Shown piece by piece: positions 10,436 through 49,666 of a stretch of 64,000 nt of DNA (its first letter is position 1; every line of letters begins with the position of its first letter). Source of the stretch: an uncultured Peptoniphilaceae bacterium (GTDB lineage Bacteria; Bacillota; Clostridia; Tissierellales; Peptoniphilaceae); assembly GCA_964461305.1 (NCBI GenBank), contig CAYWTV010000002.1, positions 56,942-120,941 on the forward strand, in the 5' to 3' direction. Both the position numbers and the translations under genes were made by a program. A model generated the notes under the pieces. The model searched no databases. It worked only from the letters and a program-made list of their open reading frames with translations, and was not told where the DNA came from.

Positions 10436-10563
10436 TGTAAGGTAAGTTAAAAGTAGAAGTACCGCTTCTCACCTCGTGGCCAAGGCCTATAGGTTACAAT
10501 TAGTTATTTATGATAGTAATTTTTTGTGCGGGTACTTTTTGTATCCGCACATATTTTATTTCC
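10436..10563 (+). promoter_or_regulatory. L20-leader-type transcription attenuator upstream of infC-rpmI-rplT
   Basis: Terminator hairpin GTGCGGGTAC/GTATCCGCAC (10526-10550) followed by ATATTTTATTT. The upstream AGTACCGC (10459-10466) can alternatively pair with the terminator 5' arm. The position matches the Firmicute L20 leader. Confidence 0.6.
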
Positions 10564-10575
10564 GGGGGTGTAAAT

Positions 10576-11088
10576 ATAAAGGAATTAAAGATTAACGAGG
10601 ACATTAGGGATAAAGAAGTTAGATTGATTGACCAGCACGGTGAACAATTAGGAGTAATCCCAACAGCTAGAGCTCAAGAACTTGCTCATGAAGCTGAGTT
10701 AGATTTAGTGTGTGTATCGCCAAATGCAAAACCTGCAGTATGCAAGATTTTAGATTATGGAAAATACAGATACGATCAACTAAAAAAGGAAAAAGAAGCT
10801 AAAAAAGCTCAGAAACAAATTAACGTAAAAGAAGTTAGGATGACACCTAATATTGATACGCATGATTTAAATGTTAAAGCTAAACAGGCTGATAAATTCC
10901 TAACTGGGGGAGATAAAGTTAAAGTCTCAGTTAGATTCAGAGGAAGAGAAATGGGACATACAGACCAAGGTCGTGTGGTTTTAGATGAGTTTCTAGAAAT
11001 CCTTGGAGATAAAGCTACTGTTGATAAAAAACCAAAAATGGAAGGTAGGAATATGGTAATGCACCTTAATCCTACAAATGATAAATAG
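10576..11088 (+). CDS. infC: Translation initiation factor IF-3, probably starting at a non-AUG codon (ATA 10576)
   Basis: KINEDIRDKEVRLIDQHGEQLGV matches the IF-3 N-terminus. RBS GGGGGTG (10564-10570) lies 5 nt before ATA. The ORF-track ATG at 10510 lies inside the leader, upstream of the attenuator hairpin. Product is about 171 aa, typical for IF-3. Confidence 0.85.
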   Translation: MKELKINEDIRDKEVRLIDQHGEQLGVIPTARAQELAHEAELDLVCVSPNAKPAVCKILDYGKYRYDQLKKEKEAKKAQKQINVKEVRMTPNIDTHDLNVKAKQADKFLTGGDKVKVSVRFRGREMGHTDQGRVVLDEFLEILGDKATVDKKPKMEGRNMVMHLNPTNDK

Positions 11089-34061: not shown

Positions 34062-34161
34062 TAAAATAGGCGTATTAATTTACGCCAATACATAAATTAA
34101 CTATTTTGTAACGCTTTTTATAAAATATAAAAGTATAATGAATCTAGAAGGAGGATTTAAT

Positions 34162-36432
34162 ATGAAAAAACTAGTTTTTTTAATCCTTTTAATATCTTTG
34201 TTCCTTTCAGGTTGTACTGAGGTTACTCAAAGTAGAAATACTAATCTTAACGACGATTCTAAAGAGGTGGAAGTTAATAGTAATTTTAATGGAGAAACTG
34301 AGGAAGCTTTGGATCAACCTAGTGAAGAAGTTGTAGCTGAAGATATAAACCAAGATGTAGCTACTGAGCAAACACAAGATGTTAAATCACAGTATACAGA
34401 TAGCGAATATTTAAATACACAACAAGAAGAGATGGAACTTAGTGAAATAATAACTAAAATGAAGTCGATTTTTAATATTGATGATAGTTATGACGATATT
34501 AGAACAGAAGAGCACACTTCAGAGTCAGGTTTTAAAACTTATAATGTAAATTATAATAACCTAGAGAAAAATGAAAGCTTATGGTATAGTTCAGATTCTT
34601 ATGGAAACTTGATAAACTATGGAAAACATTCTGAATATTTGTACAGTGATGACATTCCTGAAACAATATCAAGATCAGAAGCTCAAGAAATTGTAGGGGA
34701 TTTTTTAGTTAAGCTTTATGGGGATTCATCTAGGGAATATATTATCAATATGCCTAGATCTAACAACTTAGATTCTTATAATTATATTTTTGATATAACT
34801 AGAACTGCTAATGGAGTAAAAGTTCCTTCAGATAGTATAAATATGGAAATTAGCAAAAAAGACGGATCAATAACTTCAATTATGGTTCAAACAAATACAA
34901 ACTATAATTTTGCTGATGAATCCTATTTTGAATCTTTAGAAAATCTAAAATCTGAAGATGAAGCTTTTGAAAAGTTTAAAGAATTTAATATTCTTTACAA
35001 ATCTTTATTAGGTATAGAAAGAGAAAATCCTGGCCTTTATGCAGATTATGAGTACAAGCCCATATATTCTTTTTTACAAAACCAAGTACCTGTTAATGCA
35101 AAAACTCTAGAACCAGAGTATTCTTATAGTACTAGAATAATCACATACAGTGTCGGAGCTTCAGAAGAGATGGCAGCAGATATGAGTCAAGTTGAGCAAG
35201 AACACTTAGATTCTGTAAAAGATCAGCATAATGTTATTGAAGCAGAAGAAAAAGCTAGACAATTATTTGAATTAGGTGATTATAAACTTAGTCAAACTAA
35301 TTTTACTAACTATAATAGAATTAAAGGTTATTTTGTTTGGGAGTTAGTTTTTCAAAAGGATGAAGAATATATCTATATTAAAATTTTAGCTAATGACTTA
35401 TCACTAATAAGTTATCAAACTGGAAACATGGTTATAAGTCAAAACAAAAATGAACCAAATTATAACCCACAATATTTAACAGATGCAAACAACTTTTTAA
35501 CTATAAAAGGTGGATTGCAGCCTAGAGATTTTACCTTAACATCAAGAAGTGTCAATGAACAATATGGACCTATTCATGAATTTAAATATTTTAGAATTTT
35601 CGAAGATGATTTACACATCTATAATGATCAAGTCTATATAACAATAGATAAAGAAACCCAAGAGGTTACAGGTTATTCTAGAATATGGACATTTGTAGAT
35701 GAGGTAGAAAATAAAGAATTCGAAATTTCTCAAAAAGAAGGATATGAAATTTTAAATGAACAACTAAATTTTGATTTAGTTTATAAAAGGGAAAGTACAA
35801 GTGAAAATAGTGAAGTAAAATTATTCTATGAACTTAGCCCTATAAATATTTCTAATTTTGCAAATGACATTTTACTTGATGGAACTACTGGAAAATTAAT
35901 TGATTTATATGGAAAACCTTTAAATATTCAAAGGAATATAGAATATGATGATATAAATGAAGCAAAAAATCCAGATATTATAAAAACTTTAGCGGAAAAT
36001 GGAATTGGTTTTCCAGGTAGACAATTAAATCCTAAAGAAAAAATAAATCAAGTTGATTTATTTAGAATATTTTTATCTAGCTATAATTATGGAACTGATC
36101 CATTTGATTTAACAGACGATGAAGTTTACCAAACTATTGAGAATATGAATTTATTAGAAATTGAATCTAGACAACCGGACAAGATTTTAACTCATAGGGA
36201 TTATTCACGATATATTTCTAAATTGTTAAATTATAATGATATAGCGAAAATGAATGATATTTTCAAAGACAAATATGATGATATTACAAGTGAAGATTCA
36301 GACTATGGATATTTATTCCTTGGAGATATTAAAGGTTTAATAGAAAGTGAAGATAATAAACTGATGCCGGATAAAGAAATAGACCGAGAAACTGCACTTT
36401 ACTATTTCTATAATTTAAAATTAATTGATTAA
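34162..36432 (+). CDS. Large secreted lipoprotein of unknown function, with two C-terminal SLH-like segments
   Basis: Signal peptide plus lipobox (LISLFLSGC). Acidic low-complexity linker. C-terminal DIIKTLAENGIGFPGRQLNPKEKINQVDLFRIFL resembles an S-layer-homology repeat. RBS GGAGGA lies before ATG 34162. Confidence 0.6.
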   Translation: MKKLVFLILLISLFLSGCTEVTQSRNTNLNDDSKEVEVNSNFNGETEEALDQPSEEVVAEDINQDVATEQTQDVKSQYTDSEYLNTQQEEMELSEIITKMKSIFNIDDSYDDIRTEEHTSESGFKTYNVNYNNLEKNESLWYSSDSYGNLINYGKHSEYLYSDDIPETISRSEAQEIVGDFLVKLYGDSSREYIINMPRSNNLDSYNYIFDITRTANGVKVPSDSINMEISKKDGSITSIMVQTNTNYNFADESYFESLENLKSEDEAFEKFKEFNILYKSLLGIERENPGLYADYEYKPIYSFLQNQVPVNAKTLEPEYSYSTRIITYSVGASEEMAADMSQVEQEHLDSVKDQHNVIEAEEKARQLFELGDYKLSQTNFTNYNRIKGYFVWELVFQKDEEYIYIKILANDLSLISYQTGNMVISQNKNEPNYNPQYLTDANNFLTIKGGLQPRDFTLTSRSVNEQYGPIHEFKYFRIFEDDLHIYNDQVYITIDKETQEVTGYSRIWTFVDEVENKEFEISQKEGYEILNEQLNFDLVYKRESTSENSEVKLFYELSPINISNFANDILLDGTTGKLIDLYGKPLNIQRNIEYDDINEAKNPDIIKTLAENGIGFPGRQLNPKEKINQVDLFRIFLSSYNYGTDPFDLTDDEVYQTIENMNLLEIESRQPDKILTHRDYSRYISKLLNYNDIAKMNDIFKDKYDDITSEDSDYGYLFLGDIKGLIESEDNKLMPDKEIDRETALYYFYNLKLID

Positions 36433-36551: not shown

Positions 36552-37028
36552 ATGAATATAGAATTTTTTAAAGAATTGTTTAAAAGAACAGGTTATGGAA
36601 TGGTCCAATTAATTAAAGGGATGGTGTTTTCTTCTGTTATAAATTTTGTGATTATTGCTATTGGATTAAAAATAGCTAATGTTCCTTATTATGGACTTAT
36701 TGCATTTGCAATAGCTATTGCAGATTTATTACCTGTATTAGGAGCGGGTATAGTATTAATACCTTGGGCTATTATTTCATTAGTCACTGGAGAGGTCTCT
36801 CAGGCAATCACTTTGGTGATTTTATATGTGATAACATTTTTTGTAAAACAAATCATAGAGCCTATAATATTAGGTAAAAGTATAGGTTTAAAACCATTAT
36901 ATACCTTAGGTATAACTGCTATTTCTATGATTATTTTGTCCCCAGCAGTTGGGGCTATAGTTGGTGCTATTATTTCAGTAGTTGTTGCAGCTTTTTTAAA
37001 TTTAAGAGATAGTAAAAGAGAAAACTAA
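36552..37028 (+). CDS. Half-size AI-2E/YtvI-like membrane protein (corresponds only to the C-terminal half of the family)
   Basis: 158 aa. IADLLPVLGAGIVLIPWAI...KQIIEPIILGKSIGLKPL matches the AI-2E C-terminal core. No N-terminal half lies upstream. Confidence 0.6.
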   Translation: MNIEFFKELFKRTGYGMVQLIKGMVFSSVINFVIIAIGLKIANVPYYGLIAFAIAIADLLPVLGAGIVLIPWAIISLVTGEVSQAITLVILYVITFFVKQIIEPIILGKSIGLKPLYTLGITAISMIILSPAVGAIVGAIISVVVAAFLNLRDSKREN

Positions 37029-37049: not shown

Positions 37050-37078
37050 TTGACAAAACCCTTTGATTATTGTAATCT
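37050..37078 (+). promoter_or_regulatory. Sigma-A-type promoter of the aspS leader
   Basis: TTGACA (37050-37055), a 17-nt spacer, then TAATCT. Confidence 0.5.
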
Positions 37079-37092
37079 TTATAGGTATAAAA

Positions 37093-37329
37093 CTGTGAAC
37101 AGAAGAGTAAATTATATTGTAAATTTAAGCGAGTCGATTATGGTGTAAGTTCGATATGGAGATATAATTGAAAAACATCTGGGAGTTTCTAACTGAAATT
37201 ATAGTAGGATTAGAAGTTATTTGCACTTTACGCAAAATATAATTAAGTGGATTATCTATTTAGATAATCAATTTGGGTGGTACCGCGAAATTTAAACCTT
37301 CGTCCCTTTGTGGAAATGAAGGTTTTTTT
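37093..37329 (+). promoter_or_regulatory. T-box riboswitch leader; the specifier reads as AAC (Asn)
   Basis: Stem I has a K-turn/GA motif (GTGAACAGAAGAGTA), AG-bulge-like AGCGAG and distal-loop TGGTGTAAG. The specifier-loop 3' strand is GAAAAACA (37170-37177), closed by the CAGA/TCTG helix. The canonical T-box AATTTGGGTGGTACCGCG lies at 37270-37287. The terminator is AAACCTTC...GAAGGTTT plus T7 (37294-37329). Confidence 0.88.
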
Positions 37330-37352
37330 ATATTTAAAAAAGGAGTGAGATT

Positions 37353-39461
37353 GTGAAAAAAGACTATACAAGGAGTCATTATTGTGGAAGAATATCAGAA
37401 TCTGATATAGATACGAGTGTAACTGCAATGGGCTGGGTTCATACTAATAGAGATATGGGCGGAATTATTTTTATAGATTTAAGAGATAAATCTGGTATTT
37501 TGCAAGTGGTTTTTGATTCTAAGGATTTTTCAGAAGAAGAATTTTCTGAAATAGAAGGACTTAGAAATGAATATGTAATAGCAGTTTCAGGAAATATAAG
37601 GGAAAGAGATGAGGAAACTTACAATCCTAAAATTCCAACTGGAACAGTAGAATTAAAAGCAAAAGATTTTAAAGTTTTATCTAAGTCTAAAACTCTTCCA
37701 TTTCCAATAGATGACAATGTGGATGTTAGAGAAGATTTAAGAATGAAACATAGATACTTGGATTTGAGACGTCCAAAAATGTACAAAAACTTCTTACTTC
37801 GTAACAATACTTTAAGAAGTATTAGAAGATTTTTAGAAGATAATGAATTTATGGAAGTGGAAACTCCTATACTAACTAAAAGTACACCAGAAGGAGCTAG
37901 AGATTATCTAGTACCTAGTAGAGTTCACCAAGGAGAATTTTACGCCCTACCTCAGTCTCCCCAAATATTTAAACAATTACTAATGGTATCGGGCTTTGAT
38001 AAATATTACCAAGTTGCCAGATGCTTTAGAGATGAAGATTTAAGGGCAGACAGACAACCTGAGTTTACTCAAATAGATATGGAAACTTCATTTTTATCTC
38101 AAGAAGAAATTCTAAATTATTTAGAAAAATTATTCAAAAACGTATTTAAAGAAGTAATGGGAATAGATTTTAAAGAGCCTTTCCCAAGGATGACCTATCA
38201 AGAAGCAATGGACAATTACGGATCAGATAAACCTGATATTAGATTTGGCCTTAAAATAGTAGATGTAACTGAAGAGATAAGATCATCTAGCTTTAAGGTT
38301 TTCACTGATACTTTAAAATTAGATGATGGAAGTGTTAGAGCTATTAATATTAAAGGTGGTAATGCCTTTACAAGAACTGAAATCGAAGATATGACTGAGT
38401 ATGCTATCTCCCAGGGTGCTAAGGGAATGGCTTGGATTGCAATAGACAATGATGGCAATTTAAGAACTATTTTAACTAAATACTTCTCAGAAGAAGATAT
38501 GACAAAGTTATTAGAAAAAATGGAAGCTAAACCTGGAGATTTAATAATTTTTTCTGCTGATAAATTAGAAGTAGTTTACAAAACATTAGGAAACTTAAGG
38601 CTTTATGTTGGAGATAAATTAGGTCTTAGGAAAAAAGACGACTATAAATTCTTGATGGTAGTAGATTTTCCTCAATTTGAATATTCTGAAGAAGAAGATA
38701 GATACGTAGCTATGCATCATCCTTTTACTATGCCAGTAGAAGAAGACATTCAGTATTTAGAGTCTGATCCATTAAAGGTAAGAGCTCAATCTTACGATGT
38801 GGTACTAAATGGTATAGAGCTTGGAAGTGGTAGTTTAAGAATTTATAGAAGTGATATCCAAGAGAAGATGTTTAAGCTCCTAGGTATTAGCGACGAAGAA
38901 ATTCAAAGACGTTTTGGATTTATTATTGAAGCTTTCCAATACGGTACTCCACCACACGGAGGATTTGCATTTGGTTTAGATAGATTAATAATGTTAATGG
39001 CAAAAGAAGATAGTATCAGGGAAGTAATAGCATTTCCTAAAAATAGAGATGCTCAATGTCTTTTATCAGAAGCTCCAAGTACTGTAGATGATTCTCAACT
39101 TGAAGATTTAGGAATTGGAATAGTTGGAGAAAATGGTTTTATTAAAGAATCTAAATCAGTTAAAGAAGTAGCTACTGAAAAATTAGAAGATATTAAGAGC
39201 TATGCAGATATGTCTATGTTAAATATTGATGAAGTAAATGAAGTTAGATTTAAAACCTATATTAATGACTTTATAGATTTAACAAAAACTTTAAGAGAAC
39301 TTGATTTAACAGAGTATGAGCCTACAGTAAATATTCACCCAGTTGACAATACATTTAGAAAAGATATTGTACAAGAAGAATTTTCAAGGGATGAATTATT
39401 AGGAAGTTCTTATACTGACGAGACAGGACATATATTAGTTCCTCGATTAATTGAAGATTAG
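37353..39461 (+). CDS. aspS: Aspartate--tRNA ligase (bacterial type, likely non-discriminating) with a C-terminal GatC-like domain fused in frame
   Basis: 702 aa. The AspRS body carries motif 2 FRDEDLRADRQPEFTQIDME and motif 3 GGFAFGLDRLIMLM. Residues about 607-702 (nt 39171-39458) align with GatC (LDLTEYEPTVNIHPVDNTFRKD, ETGHILVPRLIED). GTG start with RBS AGGAG. Confidence 0.9.
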   Translation: MKKDYTRSHYCGRISESDIDTSVTAMGWVHTNRDMGGIIFIDLRDKSGILQVVFDSKDFSEEEFSEIEGLRNEYVIAVSGNIRERDEETYNPKIPTGTVELKAKDFKVLSKSKTLPFPIDDNVDVREDLRMKHRYLDLRRPKMYKNFLLRNNTLRSIRRFLEDNEFMEVETPILTKSTPEGARDYLVPSRVHQGEFYALPQSPQIFKQLLMVSGFDKYYQVARCFRDEDLRADRQPEFTQIDMETSFLSQEEILNYLEKLFKNVFKEVMGIDFKEPFPRMTYQEAMDNYGSDKPDIRFGLKIVDVTEEIRSSSFKVFTDTLKLDDGSVRAINIKGGNAFTRTEIEDMTEYAISQGAKGMAWIAIDNDGNLRTILTKYFSEEDMTKLLEKMEAKPGDLIIFSADKLEVVYKTLGNLRLYVGDKLGLRKKDDYKFLMVVDFPQFEYSEEEDRYVAMHHPFTMPVEEDIQYLESDPLKVRAQSYDVVLNGIELGSGSLRIYRSDIQEKMFKLLGISDEEIQRRFGFIIEAFQYGTPPHGGFAFGLDRLIMLMAKEDSIREVIAFPKNRDAQCLLSEAPSTVDDSQLEDLGIGIVGENGFIKESKSVKEVATEKLEDIKSYADMSMLNIDEVNEVRFKTYINDFIDLTKTLRELDLTEYEPTVNIHPVDNTFRKDIVQEEFSRDELLGSSYTDETGHILVPRLIED

Positions 39462-39475
39462 GAAGGAGTATAAAT

Positions 39476-40657
39476 ATGACATTACAAGAAAGATTTAAAA
39501 ACTACTTTGATAAAGTGGAAAAAGAAAATACCGAGACTCCTTTTTATAAAACATTAAGGAGAGATGAAGCATTAAAAGAATTTTCAGAAAATGAAAATGC
39601 CTTTGGAATAGTTTTATCAGATAGTATTTCTACTAAAGATGTAAAAACTACAGCGAATTCAAAAATGTTAGAAAATTACGTTCCAGCATTTGATGCAACA
39701 GTAGCGAAAAAATTAAAAGATGCAGGTGGAGTTTTACTAGGAAAAACTATAACTTTAGAATTTGGAGTTGGGGAAGCTGAAACGACTTTTGGTACTAATA
39801 TTGCAGTTGATAAAGGCGAGGATATTATAGGACTGACTATAGATTCTAAAGGTTTTATGCATTTAGGAGCATTTGAATTTGGCCTAAAAGCATTTACACC
39901 AACTTTCGGTTTAGTTTCAAGATACGGTCTTTTAGTAGTTGCATCATCAATAGATAGAATTGGTATATTAGCTAAGGATTTTAAAGAAATTCAAAAGGCT
40001 ACATCTATAATAGTTGGAAAAGATGAAAAAGACTCTTTATCTATAGAATCAACTGATGATTTTAAGGATTTAGAAGACTTAAATTTATCTAAATTAACAG
40101 TAGCAAAGTTAGATAAATTTGGTCATTTTGTTGAAGAAGCTGAATTTTTAGAAAGCTTAAATATAAATGTAGAAGAAAAAACCGTTTCGAATTTAGAATA
40201 CTCTTTACCAACTTATGAAATACTTTCTAGTGGAGAGTTTGCAACTAATATGGAAAAATATGACTCAATAGGATTTGGCCATAGAACAAATAGTTATTCC
40301 AGTTTAGATGAATTATATAAAAACTCCAGAACTGAAGGATTTGGAAGAGGCGTACAAGAAAAAATTGTATTTGGAAACTTTGTTTTAAGTGAAAACCAAT
40401 ATGAAAATTATTATGTTCAAGCTATGAAAGCAAGAACTTTAATTAGAGATAGTTTTTATAAGGTTTTAGAAGATACTGAATTTTTAATTGCACCTATTAG
40501 TTTATATTATACAGCAGGAATTAATTTATCAGGACTTCCTTCTATTTCTATACCTTATGGCAATGAGGGGATACTAATAACTACTAGGGCATTTAACGAC
40601 AAGAGATTATTAAGCTTTGCTAAAGAGCTAATAAAAGAAATGGACGGTGAAAAATAA
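39476..40657 (+). CDS. GatA-like amidase-fold protein lacking the catalytic triad (predicted glutaminase-inactive)
   Basis: 393 aa, collinear with GatA (TTANSKMLENYVPAFDATV, VSRYGL, ASSIDRIG, SRTEGFG, NLSGLPSISIP). IKDN is replaced by LSDS. The PGGSSGGSAAAVA segment is deleted (about 20 aa). DTGGSIR is replaced by DSKGFMH. Confidence 0.8.
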   Translation: MTLQERFKNYFDKVEKENTETPFYKTLRRDEALKEFSENENAFGIVLSDSISTKDVKTTANSKMLENYVPAFDATVAKKLKDAGGVLLGKTITLEFGVGEAETTFGTNIAVDKGEDIIGLTIDSKGFMHLGAFEFGLKAFTPTFGLVSRYGLLVVASSIDRIGILAKDFKEIQKATSIIVGKDEKDSLSIESTDDFKDLEDLNLSKLTVAKLDKFGHFVEEAEFLESLNINVEEKTVSNLEYSLPTYEILSSGEFATNMEKYDSIGFGHRTNSYSSLDELYKNSRTEGFGRGVQEKIVFGNFVLSENQYENYYVQAMKARTLIRDSFYKVLEDTEFLIAPISLYYTAGINLSGLPSISIPYGNEGILITTRAFNDKRLLSFAKELIKEMDGEK

Positions 40658-42081
40658 TGGCTAAAAATTATGAAACTGTCATGGGATTAGAAGTCCATGT
40701 GGAATTAAAAACTAATACAAAAATATTTTGTAATTGTTCAACAGAATTTGGTGGAGATCCTAACGAACACACCTGTCCTGTTTGTCTAGGTCTTCCAGGA
40801 GCATTACCAGTACTAAATGAAAAAGCTAAAGACTATGCAGTTATGGCTGGACTTGCAACAAATTGTGAAATTACAAGAAGGGGAAAACAAGATAGAAAAA
40901 ACTATTTTTATCCTGATTTAGGTAAAGGATATCAAATTTCCCAAGGAGATAATCCAATTTGTTATAACGGTTATTTAGATATTGAAACTTCAGAAGGTAA
41001 AAAAAGAATCAGAATTAACAGAATTCATCTAGAAGAAGATGCTGGAAAGTTAGTTCATGCTGAAGGGATAGGAAGCTTAGTAGATAATAACAGATCAAGT
41101 ATGCCCCTTGTGGAAATAGTTTCTGAACCAGATTTAAGATCTGCAGAAGAAGTTATAGCATATTTACAAAAACTTCGAGCTAACTTAACATACATTGACG
41201 TTTCAGATGCAAAAATGAACGAAGGATCTTTTAGATGTGATGTTAACTTATCAGTTAGAGAAAAAGGCTCTGATATTTTAGGAACTAGAGTAGAAATGAA
41301 AAACTTAAACTCTTTTCAATCAATTCAAAGGGCAATTGAATTCGAAGCAAATAGACAAATAAAAGCTATTGAAAATGGAGAAGAATTGTTCCAAGAAACT
41401 AGAGGGTATAATCAAGATCAAAAGAGGACATTTTCTATGAGAAGAAAAGAAAATGCCACAGATTACAGATATATGCCTGATCCTGATTTAATGCCAATTG
41501 TAGTTACAGATGAGGATATAAAAAGAATAAAAGAGTCTCTTCCAGAACTGCCAGATGCAAGAAAAGAAAGATACGTTGAAGAATACGAACTATCTAACTA
41601 CGATGCTGAAAAACTAATTTCATCAATAGAAGTTGCAAACTTTTTTGAAGAAGCAGCTAAAACTGGTGCGGATCCTAAAACTCTTGCAAATATAATAACT
41701 ACTGATATTTTTAGACTTACAAGTCCTGAAGATTTTAATGTGAATTTTGAAGCTTCTAAATTAGGAGAAATAGTTCAATATATTGAAGAAGGTAGAATAA
41801 ACCTTAGTAGTGCTAAGAAAATAATTGAAACTCTCTTTGAAGATAATACTAAATCTCCAGAGGAGATAATTTCAGAACAGGATTTAGAACAAATTAACGA
41901 TGAAAATCTCTTATCAGAAATCATTGATGAGGTATTAGTTAAAAATCAAAAGGCTGTTGAAGAGTATAAATCTGGAAAGGAAAAGGCAATTCAATCTATA
42001 ATTGGTCAAATTATGGGAAAAACTAAAGGAAAAGCCAACCCTTCTTTGACAATAGATATTATAAAGAAAAAAATCAAATAA
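40657..42081 (+). CDS. gatB: Asp-tRNA(Asn)/Glu-tRNA(Gln) amidotransferase subunit B
   Basis: 474 aa with GLEVHVELKT, CPVCLGLPGALPVLN, DRKNYFYPDLGKGYQISQ, HLEEDAGK and a YqeY-like tail. The start overlaps the upstream stop (TAATG). Confidence 0.95.
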   Translation: MAKNYETVMGLEVHVELKTNTKIFCNCSTEFGGDPNEHTCPVCLGLPGALPVLNEKAKDYAVMAGLATNCEITRRGKQDRKNYFYPDLGKGYQISQGDNPICYNGYLDIETSEGKKRIRINRIHLEEDAGKLVHAEGIGSLVDNNRSSMPLVEIVSEPDLRSAEEVIAYLQKLRANLTYIDVSDAKMNEGSFRCDVNLSVREKGSDILGTRVEMKNLNSFQSIQRAIEFEANRQIKAIENGEELFQETRGYNQDQKRTFSMRRKENATDYRYMPDPDLMPIVVTDEDIKRIKESLPELPDARKERYVEEYELSNYDAEKLISSIEVANFFEEAAKTGADPKTLANIITTDIFRLTSPEDFNVNFEASKLGEIVQYIEEGRINLSSAKKIIETLFEDNTKSPEEIISEQDLEQINDENLLSEIIDEVLVKNQKAVEEYKSGKEKAIQSIIGQIMGKTKGKANPSLTIDIIKKKIK

Positions 42082-42091
42082 AATATATTCA

Positions 42092-42130
42092 AATAGTAGT
42101 TTTAGTAAGCCTAGAACTACTATTGTGTTT
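42092..42130 (+). terminator. Intrinsic terminator after gatB
   Basis: 14-bp stem AATAGTAGTTTTAG / CTAGAACTACTATT, then GTGTTTT. Confidence 0.7.
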
Positions 42131-42229: not shown

Positions 42230-44641
42230 ATGAAAGAATATAATCACAAAGAAGTAGAGAAAAAGTGGCAAGAAAAGTGGGACAATGAAAAAACTTTTCA
42301 CTGTGAAATAGATACATCAAAGGAAAAATTCTATGCATTAGTAGAATTTCCATATCCATCAGGAGACGGGCTCCATGTAGGTCACGCAAGACCGTATACG
42401 GCACTAGACATTATATCCAGGAAGAAAAGATTAGAAGGTTATAATGTATTGTATCCTATGGGATGGGATGCTTTTGGATTGCCTACGGAAAACTATGCCA
42501 TAAAAACAGGAATACATCCTAAAATAGTTACTAAAAAAAATGTTGCTAATTTCAAATCCCAATTAAAATCAATCGGTTTTTCCTTTGATTGGGACAGGGA
42601 AATTAATACTACAGATCCAGAGTATTATAAATGGACACAGTGGATATTTATAAAACTCTTTGAAAAAGGTTTAGCTTATAAAAAGGAAATGCCAATAAAT
42701 TGGTGCCCATCTTGTTTAGTTGGTCTTGCAAATGAAGAGGTTATTCAAGGAACCTGTGAAAGATGTGGTTCTGAAGTAGAGCAAAAAGTTAGAAGTCAGT
42801 GGATGCTTTCTATTACTAAATATGCAGATAGATTGTTAAATGATTTGTCTGAGGTAGATTATTTTAATAGAATTAAAGCTCAACAAGAAAACTGGATTGG
42901 AAAATCAGTTGGGGCAGAACTTGAATTTAAAATTAAGGACAAAGAAGATTCTTTAAAGGTATTTACTACTAGACCAGATACAATTTATGGAGCAACTTAT
43001 ATGGTAATAGCTCCAGAACACGATATTATAAATAAATATTCTCATATTATAAAAAATGTGGACGAAATAGAAGAATATAAACACAAAGCATCTCACCTTT
43101 CTGAATTTGAAAGAACAGAACTTGTAAAAGAAAAAACAGGTGTTGAAATCCAAGGTTTAAAGGCTATTAATCCATTTAATCAAAAGGAAATGCCAATTTG
43201 GATATCAGACTATGTACTTTCCACTTATGGAACTGGAGCTATTATGGCAGTACCAGGTCATGACGAAAGGGACTACGAATTTGCTAAAAAGTTTAATTTA
43301 GAAATTATACAAGTTGTTGATGGAGGAGATATTAAGGAAAGTGCTTATACTGATATTGAATCTGGAAAGATGATAAATTCTGATATATTAAATGGACTAT
43401 CCGTTCAAGATGCTATAGATAAAGCAATTGAATATGCTGTTGAGAATAATTTTGGAAAAAAACAAATCAACTTTAAGTTAAGAGACTGGGTATTTTCTAG
43501 ACAAAGATATTGGGGAGAACCAATTCCAATTGTTCATTGCGAAGAATGTGGATATGTTCCAGTTCCTGAAAGTGAATTACCTTTAACTTTACCTGAGGTT
43601 GAAACTTACGAACCATCAAAAGACGGTAGTTCTCCACTTTCTAAAATGGACGATTGGGTAAATACAACTTGTCCAAAATGTAATAAACCAGCTAAAAGAG
43701 AAACCGACACTATGCCTCAATGGGCAGGTTCTTCTTGGTATTTTATGAGATATATTGATCCTCACAATGATAATGAATTAGCCTCAAAGGATGCACTAGA
43801 TTATTGGTTAAGTGTAGATTGGTATAATGGAGGAATGGAACATACAACTCTTCATTTACTTTATTCTAGATTTTGGTATAAGTTTTTATACGATATTGGA
43901 GTTGCTCCTACGAAAGAACCTTATAAAAAAAGAACATCCCACGGTATGATTTTAGGTTCTGATGGTGGAAAAATGAGTAAATCCAGAGGAAATGTATTAA
44001 ATCCAAACGATATTGTAGATGAATATGGAGCTGATACCTTAAGAACTTATGAAATGTTTATGGGAGACTTTGAAAAAAGTGCGCCATGGTCTACAGAAAG
44101 TTTAATAGGCACTAGGAGATTTTTAGATAGAGTTTGGAATTTACAAAATATTTTAGTTCCTGGAGATGAATATTCAAAGGAATTTGAAGTTGATTTTCAT
44201 CAAAGTATTAAAAAGGTAACTGAAGATTATGAATCTTTAAAATTTAATACTGCAATTGCTCAACTAATGACTTTGCAAAATCTTTTGAATAAAAAAGGAG
44301 AAGTAAATCATAAAGAGTTTAAAACTTATTTAACTTTATTAAATCCTGTAGCACCACATATTACAGAAGAAATATGGAGCTTAAATGATTTTGAAGGAGA
44401 AATATCTTCTCAAAAATGGCCTGAATATATAGAAGAAAAAACAAAAAGAGATGAAGTGGAATATCCAGTTCAACTTAATGGTAAGGTTAAAATGAAAATT
44501 ACTGCTCCAAGGAATGCAACCCAAGAAGAAGTAAAAAAATTAGTTTACAACTCTGATGAGGGTAAGGAATTATTCAAAGGAAAAGAAATAATAAAAGAAA
44601 TATTTGTACCTGGTAAAATATTCAATGTAGTGGTAAAATAA
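42230..44641 (+). CDS. leuS: Leucine--tRNA ligase
   Basis: 803 aa with the HIGH-type [14 protein letters not shown] and the CP1 editing domain. Confidence 0.97.
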
Positions 44642-48793: not shown

Positions 48794-49666
48794 ATGATTA
48801 TTGAAAAGACAAATATTATATTTAATATGAACAAAGACAATGAACCTGTTATGAAATGTAGTAGTGGAGATGAGGTAGTTTTTAAAACATGTGATTGTTT
48901 TAGTGATACTATAAAAAGTGAAAAAGATTTAGTAAGTGGGATTGATTTTGAAAGAGTAAATCCAGCTACAGGTCCTTTATATATTAAGGAAGCTAATGTA
49001 GGAGATGTTTTAAAAGTAACAATAAACAGTATAAAATTAGATAATAAGGGAGTAGTTGTAACAGCTTCAGGCTTAGGAAGACTAAAGTCTCATATTAAAG
49101 ATGAGGAAACTGTTGTTTGTAATATAGAAGGAAACTATTTAAATTATAAAGGCATAAAAATACCCCTTAGAAAGATGATTGGAGTTCTTGGAGTTTCTCC
49201 TAAAAATGATAAGATTTCAACTGGTAATCCTTATGATCACGGTGGGAATTTAGATTGTATAGAGGTTACAGAAGGATCTAGTATTTATCTGCCAGTTAAT
49301 GTTAAAGGAGCTTTACTTTCCTTAGGAGATTTACACGCTACTATGGGTGATGGAGAAATAATGGGTAGCGGATTAGAAATTTCTGGAGAAGTTGAAGTAA
49401 AAGTTGAAGTTTTAAAGGATTTTGATTTTAATCTTCCTATTATTGAAACTAAAGATAAATGGATAACTTTAGGCTCAAGGGAAACTATGGAAGAGGCTAG
49501 CGATTTGGCAATTTGTAATATGGCAGATTTAATTATGAAAAAATCTAATTTTTCATTAAACCAAGCTGGAATGTTAATATCTTTAGCAGGTGATTTAAGG
49601 GTTTGTCAGATGGTCAATCCTCATATAACAATGAGAGTAGAAATAAGTAAAGATATAATCAATTAA
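48794..49666 (+). CDS. Acetamidase/formamidase family protein
   Basis: 290 aa with NPATGPLYIKEANVGDVL and GDLHATMGDGEI, typical of the FmdA/AmdA family. Confidence 0.8.
   Translation: MIIEKTNIIFNMNKDNEPVMKCSSGDEVVFKTCDCFSDTIKSEKDLVSGIDFERVNPATGPLYIKEANVGDVLKVTINSIKLDNKGVVVTASGLGRLKSHIKDEETVVCNIEGNYLNYKGIKIPLRKMIGVLGVSPKNDKISTGNPYDHGGNLDCIEVTEGSSIYLPVNVKGALLSLGDLHATMGDGEIMGSGLEISGEVEVKVEVLKDFDFNLPIIETKDKWITLGSRETMEEASDLAICNMADLIMKKSNFSLNQAGMLISLAGDLRVCQMVNPHITMRVEISKDIIN

Follow-up and report, generated by a model that had tools for sequence, protein, structure and literature searches.

The stretch of DNA analysed here, a window of 64 kb from an uncultured Peptoniphilaceae bacterium whose numbering is used for all coordinates, carries on its plus strand a compact module for tRNA-dependent amidation. 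It consists of a T-box leader reading an asparagine codon, an aspS gene for aspartyl-tRNA synthetase (AspRS) which continues in frame into a GatC domain, a gatA homologue and gatB. In the textbook GatCAB enzyme, ammonia released by a glutaminase (GatA) passes through a tunnel to GatB, a tRNA-dependent kinase/transamidase. The GatA homologue of the module, here termed GatA', has kept the fold of this glutaminase but has lost its active site, and it is this conserved and selected pseudo-GatA that constitutes the new element of the locus, which as a whole probably encodes an ammonia-dependent amidotransferase.

A candidate −35 hexamer of the operon promoter, TTGACA, can be read from the sequence at 37050–37055, but it is a weak one, since a consensus scan reported no matching −10 element. 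The T-box leader (37086–37310), extending from Stem I through the T-box sequence and the antiterminator, matches Rfam family RF00230 with 125.6 bits (gathering score 93) over model positions 1–219 of 219. The initial annotation of this DNA had read the specifier as the Asn codon AAC in front of aspS, and the Rfam model alignment agrees, placing AAC in the specifier loop at 37174–37176 and in the context GAA-A-AAC-A (37170–37177), in which the codon is followed by a purine. The T-box sequence GGGTGGTACCGCG (= GGGUGGUACCGCG; 37275–37287) is the predicted pairing site for the tRNA acceptor end. A leader terminator that can be read from the sequence (37294–37329), with a hairpin formed by AAACCTTC / GAAGGTTT at 37294–37325 and then a T-run to 37329, starts inside the Rfam match, near its 3' end; the ribosome-binding site and the GTG start codon at 37353 follow downstream. 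The 3' end of the transcription unit may be marked by a terminator-like hairpin of 14 pairs (42092–42124), a pattern match in the consensus scan, beyond which leuS begins at 42230. A tRNA(Asn) gene, sought for its U1–A72 pair and discriminator base, was present neither in the window nor in six fetched loci of relatives.

The first gene of the unit is a single open reading frame (ORF) of 702 aa (37353–39461) with no stop codon between its AspRS and GatC parts. Its aspS part comprises residues 1–590 (37353–39122), with residues 5–590 matching NF001750 at 861.7 bits (cutoff 443) and a TIGR00459 score of 798 bits (cutoff 374), and the Pfam domains tRNA_anti-codon (the OB fold), tRNA-synt_2 (the class II core) and the GAD insertion identify it as a bacterial-type AspRS. 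An in-frame linker of about 20 residues (39123–39182) leads into the GatC domain (residues 611–701; 39183–39461 including the stop codon), which is recognized by Pfam GatC as well as by TIGR00135 (cutoff 47.1), with model positions 3–93 of 93 aligned and scores of 51.5 bits within the fusion and of 56.0 bits when the domain is taken alone. Thus, GatC is not a free-standing protein of about 95 aa but an in-frame extension of the synthetase, as had been proposed, and a tblastn search of the 64-kb window for other GatC-like sequence found none. The best PDB match of the AspRS part is the non-discriminating enzyme of Pseudomonas aeruginosa (4wj3_M, 613.7 bits), with discriminating enzymes close behind (582–592 bits); it is the context, i.e. 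the Asn T-box and the gat genes, which suggests that the AspRS encoded here is non-discriminating. The same architecture of AspRS followed by a C-terminal GatC defines NF009460 (PRK12820, bifunctional AspRS/amidotransferase subunit C), with which the window protein can be aligned over residues 6–676. Its score of 657.1 bits is far under the cutoff of 1379, so that neither this protein nor the clostridial fusions described below belong to that equivalog; rather, the clostridial fusions may form a separate lineage of NF009460-like architecture. A literature search for an AspRS–GatC fusion in a limited library found no paper.

GatA' itself (393 aa; 39476–40657) has a Pfam Amidase domain, but reaches only 245.8 bits with the GatA equivalog TIGR00132 (cutoff 481.1), in a match that is split into three stretches. 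For comparing individual residues with GatA of Staphylococcus aureus (2df4_A, whose numbering we use), a profile hidden Markov model alignment and three MAFFT alignments were made, all of which agree on the loss of Lys, cis-Ser and nucleophile Ser that the initial annotation had noticed, and which also dispel its concern about a misalignment. Lys79 is replaced by Ser48 of GatA' (39617–39619), a segment of about 20 residues with the GGSSGGS loop and its cis-Ser154 is deleted (near 39782–39793) and the nucleophile Ser178 is replaced by Phe127 (39854–39856). Glutamine is bound by Tyr309, Arg358 and Asp425 in the S. aureus enzyme (preprint 10.1101/733030); in GatA', Tyr309 is retained (Y247), Arg358 has become Lys296 and the segment with Asp425 is deleted. 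Moreover, Ala255 in the conserved AEASSNL motif is Phe in 19 of the 20 members of the triad-less clade introduced below, which would put a bulky side chain into this motif of the pocket. Having lost the triad, the oxyanion loop and all but one of the three residues that bind glutamine, GatA' is predicted to be unable to hydrolyse glutamine. A new catalytic site was also considered, but the clade alignment contains no conserved polar constellation.

In contrast to the active site, the amidase-signature fold and the gene slot between gatC and gatB have both been kept, and this gene order is conserved in the relatives. An AlphaFold2 model of GatA' obtained with 21 homologues (pLDDT confidence score 85.2, predicted template modelling (TM) score 0.88) finds its best fold matches in the GatA chains of 4WJ3, 3H0L and 2DF4 (TM 0.85–0.86). 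The view of the initial annotation that the glutaminase half is structural only, i.e. that GatA' serves as a scaffold, is therefore well supported by the lost active-site and glutamine-binding residues, the kept fold and purifying selection at a relaxed rate.

This selection becomes apparent when GatA' is compared with its partners. In pairs of sequences with unsaturated synonymous divergence, the ratio of non-synonymous to synonymous substitution rates (dN/dS) is 0.11–0.24 for GatA', 0.04–0.07 for GatB and 0.07–0.11 for AspRS-GatC. At a GatB identity of 0.6–0.7, GatA identity amounts to 0.40 in triad-less versus 0.67 in intact modules, and the pace of GatA' is about twice that of intact GatA; AspRS-GatC identity is about equal in the two groups (0.62 and 0.65, respectively), with the linker-plus-GatC part taken alone being slightly faster in the triad-less group (0.34 versus 0.44). 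From 156 GatA columns that are conserved in intact proteins, the triad-less clade has kept 51 and lost 57. Purifying selection, intact ORFs and the loss of conserved columns together mean that GatA' is maintained but less constrained, i.e. it is a protein minus a large block of constraint, as expected of a catalytic subunit surviving as a scaffold. Pseudogene decay of gatA' was rejected on the basis of dN/dS and ORF integrity.

GatB, the kinase/transamidase subunit (474 aa; 40657–42081), is intact including its YqeY-like tail, just as originally described: it scores 641.8 bits with NF004012 (cutoff 338), has the Pfam domains GatB_N and GatB_Yqey and aligns over its full length to Aquifex GatB (3h0l_B). 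The triad-less clade retains 133 of 150 conserved GatB columns, and only six of the 150 switch systematically, three of these being R250G, D252S/N and F273M/L; GatB remains constrained. Its start overlaps the stop of gatA' by 1 nt, which suggests that the two genes are translationally coupled.

An important question is how far this arrangement extends beyond a single genome. When each GTDB species was represented by one genome, a scan gave 80 loci, which were mapped by tblastn and in which the triad was read against canonical GatA (loci are named by L numbers throughout). In all of the 40 mapped aspS-linked loci from clostridial genomes, AspRS has a C-terminal extension of 108–119 aa which corresponds to the GatC domain, and 22 of these 40 have a perfect GatA triad (examples are Ligaoa, Acetoanaerobium and many Oscillospiraceae). 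A T-box lies upstream of aspS in most aspS-linked loci, as detected by Rfam matches and a motif scan, and the specifier context GAA-N-AAC-R is found at this position in most of 42 related loci scanned, no matter whether GatA is intact or triad-less. Both the T-box(Asn) leader and the fusion of AspRS to GatC thus belong to the normal make-up of a large clostridial operon family. The initial annotation had counted them, along with the triad-less GatA, as three joint departures from the textbook; of these, the triad-less GatA is the one that stands. As a separate observation, L017 (8196–8446) and L059 (12906–13161) have a second T-box directly 3' of gatB, which presumably controls the next gene.

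Triad-less GatA occurs in 20 species-level loci (L005–L022, L038 and L056), none of which has a frameshift or stop. The survey of relatives that had been suggested has thus recovered both the fusion and the triad loss. In a neighbour-joining tree of GatB, which carries no support values, a single clade holds the aspS-linked modules and is separate from the housekeeping gatCAB genes that are common in Tissierellia (in the context pcrA-ligA-gatCAB). The 20 triad-less modules are monophyletic within this clade in the same tree and nested among intact fused modules, with the intact module of Acetoanaerobium (L070) as their sister. They look like the outcome of one evolutionary event, i.e. one inactivation, after which the pocket eroded and became filled, rather than a new site being built. 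Various degrees of erosion can be seen: near the base of the clade, L020 has kept Lys but lost the loop and has Ser178 replaced by Glu, and L021 has kept the length of the loop but with a scrambled sequence (GSTVGQL), with Lys changed to Ala and Ser178 to Asp; in L018 and L019, both Lys and the loop are missing but the Asp425 segment is still there; and the 393-aa forms, including that of the window, show a further loss of about 20 residues around Asp425 and of about 26 residues at the N terminus. Within the clade, the residue at the former Lys79 position varies (S, A, D, C, G, T, E), and so does that at the nucleophile position (F, L, Y, E, D, S). Together with the 393-aa forms, in which little of the pocket is left, L020 and L021 offer naturally occurring stages at which the path from a subunit to a pseudoenzyme can be studied. 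The public record of L021 (CABMKH010000005.1), titled Varibaculum timonense MGYG-HGUT-02421, bears an actinobacterial name that is probably wrong, since its AspRS and GatB are 67–70% identical to the Bacillota module and a T-box is present.

At the protein level, a search yielded 26 clusters of GatA' with lengths of 387–395 aa and 49–99% identity, as well as more distant triad-less forms of 365–466 aa, and the arrangement persists down to about 35% GatA identity. In public records these proteins are variously labelled 'hypothetical protein', 'amidase family protein' or GatA. Many members of the clade come from metagenome-assembled genomes (MAGs) that, judging by their isolate names and the titles of the samples, originate from biogas reactors.

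Triad loss is not confined to this clade. With a profile of the triad-less proteins, 1.84 billion cluster representatives were searched, and 147 of the best 150 matches were short enough to be aligned; in this list, which is biased to triad-less forms by the profile itself, 51 proteins are without at least one triad element and 36 without the nucleophile Ser. Two triad-less forms among them, P0240 and P0245, likewise occur in linkage with aspS::gatC. The full-length GatA homologues P0260 (L095, 1149–2624), with Lys changed to Gln, GGSSGG to GGAAGG and Ser178 to Cys, and P0324 (L096, 2181–3662), with both Lys and Ser178 changed to Ala, are encoded in ordinary operons of free-standing gatC-gatA-gatB without any link to aspS, and their GatB partners are 46–50% identical to the window GatB. 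As judged from these two operons, loss of the GatA triad is recurrent, i.e. has occurred more than once and also outside of the fused clade, which makes it more likely that a genuine physiological solution, and not a single accident, lies behind it. A GatA from another non-aspS context, in the Clostridiaceae MAG AS20ysBPTH_8 (L051, 10001–11347), has Lys79 changed to Ser and GGSSGGS to GGSCGGA with the nucleophile Ser kept, and may be partly degenerate. A literature search for triad-less GatA in a limited library produced nothing relevant.

Other genes in the window surround the module. Immediately 5' of the T-box, a 158-aa ORF (36552–37028, +) matches the AI-2E transporter family and looks like a truncated copy of a full-length paralogue of 347 aa at 64–1107; this short form is kept in four independent assemblies. 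It is preceded by a 764-aa ORF (34138–36432, +) with a lipoprotein-type signal (…LFLSGC) and without a Pfam match on record; this ORF keeps its synteny with the module in L006 and L012. Further away, a ribosomal protein L20 leader (RF00558, 73 bits, gathering score 58.7) at 10445–10562 (+) overlaps the start of a 192-aa ORF (10510–11088), probably the first gene of an infC-rpmI-rplT operon. At 48794–49666 (+), 7 kb 3' of the module and outside of the operon, an ORF of the acetamidase/formamidase family (FmdA_AmdA; two matched stretches, with the best covering profile positions 203–366 of 373) represents a type of ammonia-releasing enzyme; its adjacency to the module is not conserved.

Single elements of the module have counterparts in known systems. 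Clostridium acetobutylicum reportedly possesses a T-box(Asn)-controlled aspS-gatCAB operon, with a dedicated gat set beyond its housekeeping copies. The likeness consists in a tRNA(Asn)-responsive T-box in front of aspS and dedicated gat genes in one operon, whereas gatC is reportedly separate and GatCAB active there, in contrast to the fused GatC and triad-less GatA found here. The study of this operon (Saad et al. 2012, J Biol Chem 287:20382) is cited as reference 18 in PMC4206432. The Asn-transamidosomes of P. aeruginosa (4WJ3) and Thermus thermophilus (3KFU), i.e. complexes of non-discriminating AspRS, GatCAB and tRNA(Asn), contain the same four protein modules, and chains of 4wj3 are the best matches of the window AspRS by sequence and of GatA' by fold. 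However, these known complexes assemble non-covalently and in a tRNA-dependent manner and use glutamine via an active GatA, whereas here AspRS and GatC are covalently joined and the glutaminase appears dead. Amidation by a B subunit with the glutaminase bypassed or destabilized has a precedent in GatFAB and GatCAB working on NH4Cl in vitro (PMC4027206). That was, however, an experimental bypass of a glutamine-using enzyme, and the loss of the glutaminase seen here is natural, fixed and conserved. Finally, GatA-fold proteins of the amidase-signature type without the glutaminase function of GatA are exemplified by Tse8, which binds GatB and GatC, and by AtzE, which works with a small partner resembling GatC. 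In contrast to GatA', both Tse8, a toxin of a type VI secretion system (10.1101/733030), and AtzE (PDB 6c62, 'vestigial protein complex') keep the Ser-cisSer-Lys triad and act outside of a cognate operon, whereas the triad-less gene described here stays between gatC and gatB.

How could such a module operate? Uncharged tRNA(Asn) would pair at two sites, the AAC specifier and the T-box sequence, which would stabilize the antiterminator and allow read-through into the operon. The AspRS part, if non-discriminating, would load aspartate onto tRNA(Asn). The covalently attached GatC domain would clamp GatA' and GatB together such that synthetase and amidotransferase are permanently tethered; the covalent tether to an amidotransferase subunit, which had been postulated before, is borne out by the in-frame ORF, and formation of the complete complex would follow from the known role of GatC, which is required for GatA folding as well as for GatA–GatB assembly (PMC2330236). 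GatB would first phosphorylate and then amidate Asp-tRNA(Asn), with GatA', unable to hydrolyse glutamine, being kept as the structural partner of GatB and GatC. Since GatB needs ammonia and GatA' is not expected to make any, the donor would have to come from elsewhere, most likely as free NH3/NH4+ in habitats where ammonia is plentiful, for instance anaerobic digesters or guts. Free ammonia is probably the simplest donor, with the tie to such habitats being suggested by the sample records. There is precedent for the chemistry: yeast GatFAB transamidates with 20 mM NH4Cl when its glutaminase is bypassed, and a mutant with a destabilized glutaminase site even shows NH4Cl-dependent activity above that of the full-length enzyme (PMC4027206). 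On balance, we lean slightly towards this reading, i.e. a working, tethered Asn-transamidosome with GatA' as a scaffold and a GatB that uses ammonia not derived from GatA', in which the assembly of the complex, the specificity of AspRS and the origin of the ammonia are the parts that we infer.

Several observations weigh against this reading. The AspRS part also scores well against discriminating enzymes. In L007–L011 and L014, no T-box was found within 700 nt upstream of aspS::gatC, with Rfam searched at E ≤ 1 for L009 and at the gathering threshold for the others, so that regulation of these modules must, by this evidence, differ from that of the rest of the family. The glutamine pocket of GatA' appears to be filled rather than opened, which offers no obvious route for ammonia to GatB. 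Also, in the case of Tse8, a GatA look-alike of P. aeruginosa without detectable glutaminase activity, the authors propose that it replaces GatA and lowers the supply of Asn-tRNA(Asn) (preprint 10.1101/733030); by analogy, cytoplasmic ammonia would not automatically rescue a dead A subunit. Furthermore, a Tissierellaceae MAG (L022, 36–12600) carries a housekeeping pcrA-ligA-gatC-gatA-gatB cluster and then, directly downstream, the T-box, aspS::gatC, gatA' and gatB', and an intact GatA is thus available in at least one cell with a degenerate module, because of which the module need not be self-contained. In the 64-kb window, neither tblastn searches for paralogues of AspRS/AsnRS, GatA, GatB and GatC nor Pfam searches of 30 other ORFs detected asnS, asnA/B, glnS, pcrA-ligA or a second gat gene, but this inventory covers only a small part of the genome. 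A homologue search with the housekeeping GatA of L022, aimed at an intact gatA in the genomes of the triad-less modules, and the contigs of two Tissierellia hits led to other assemblies only.

These points are directly relevant to a glutaminase acting in trans, i.e. to an active GatB' whose ammonia would be delivered by the product of an intact gatA at another locus, either because subunits are exchanged with the housekeeping gatCAB or because some other glutaminase docks, with GatA' being just a placeholder or assembly factor. The gene order in L022, the common occurrence of housekeeping gatCAB in Tissierellia as a separate GatB clade and the proposal that a GatA homologue such as Tse8 can replace GatA on GatB/GatC during assembly (10.1101/733030) all speak for it. 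However, purifying selection on GatA' and its apparent translational coupling point to a stoichiometric GatA'–GatB' pair, the tethered GatC domain would favour partners encoded in cis and no glutaminase gene is conserved beside the module in the neighbourhoods of the relatives' loci, so that we consider provision in trans rather unlikely. That the old pocket of GatA' has been neofunctionalized, for instance for binding a ligand as a sensor or for some other chemistry, seems improbable: although Phe255, Lys296, Phe72 and Gly97 are newly fixed in the clade and GatA-derived amidase-signature proteins have been recruited elsewhere together with a small GatC-like partner, with AtzE (6c62) among the fold matches of GatA', there is no new conserved polar catalytic constellation, the Lys79 and nucleophile positions vary freely, and keeping just 51 of 156 conserved columns fits loss better than gain of function.

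It is more improbable still that the module no longer amidates at all, such that AspRS alone matters and gatA' and gatB are disappearing or have a function that does not involve Asn-tRNA. The destroyed active site of GatA' and its evolutionary rate, two to three times that of its partners, could be taken in this sense, but the low dN/dS and the 133 retained columns of GatB, the conserved Asn specifier, the GatC domain present in all members and the persistence of the arrangement, with zero disrupted ORFs, to about 35% GatA identity are hard to reconcile with it. The possibility raised initially that an error of sequencing or assembly conceals a stop codon between aspS and gatC or a frameshift in a normal gatA can practically be dismissed: all three ORFs are identical in protein sequence on contigs from four sequencing runs (L001–L004), the same fusion and deletions recur in at least 20 independent genomes, and the changes to the motifs are in-frame substitutions or deletions rather than shifts. 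An artefact is refuted by the agreement of the four runs and the recurrence in related genomes.

The tethered transamidosome with a scaffold GatA' can be extended to a more far-reaching proposal, which we put forward tentatively as a distinct possibility: the module would be a natural glutamine-independent amidotransferase, with which an anaerobic clade of Bacillota would make Asn-tRNA(Asn) by means of a tethered AspRS-GatC, a pseudo-GatA and GatB on free ammonia, and, with the triad having been lost repeatedly (as in L095 and L096), ammonia-dependent amidotransferases would be a recurrent and overlooked adaptation. To our knowledge, every characterized tRNA-dependent amidotransferase has an active glutaminase subunit. 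A conserved dead A subunit in a regulated operon therefore raises the questions of whether GatB can work on free ammonia in vivo and of what GatA is needed for besides catalysis, be it folding, tRNA binding or gating of the tunnel. Where GatA' is labelled GatA, metabolic reconstructions of Clostridia from digesters and the gut may include a glutamine-dependent route that does not exist. Finally, the tethered AspRS-GatC, which is widespread in Clostridia, would lend itself to structural work on substrate channelling.

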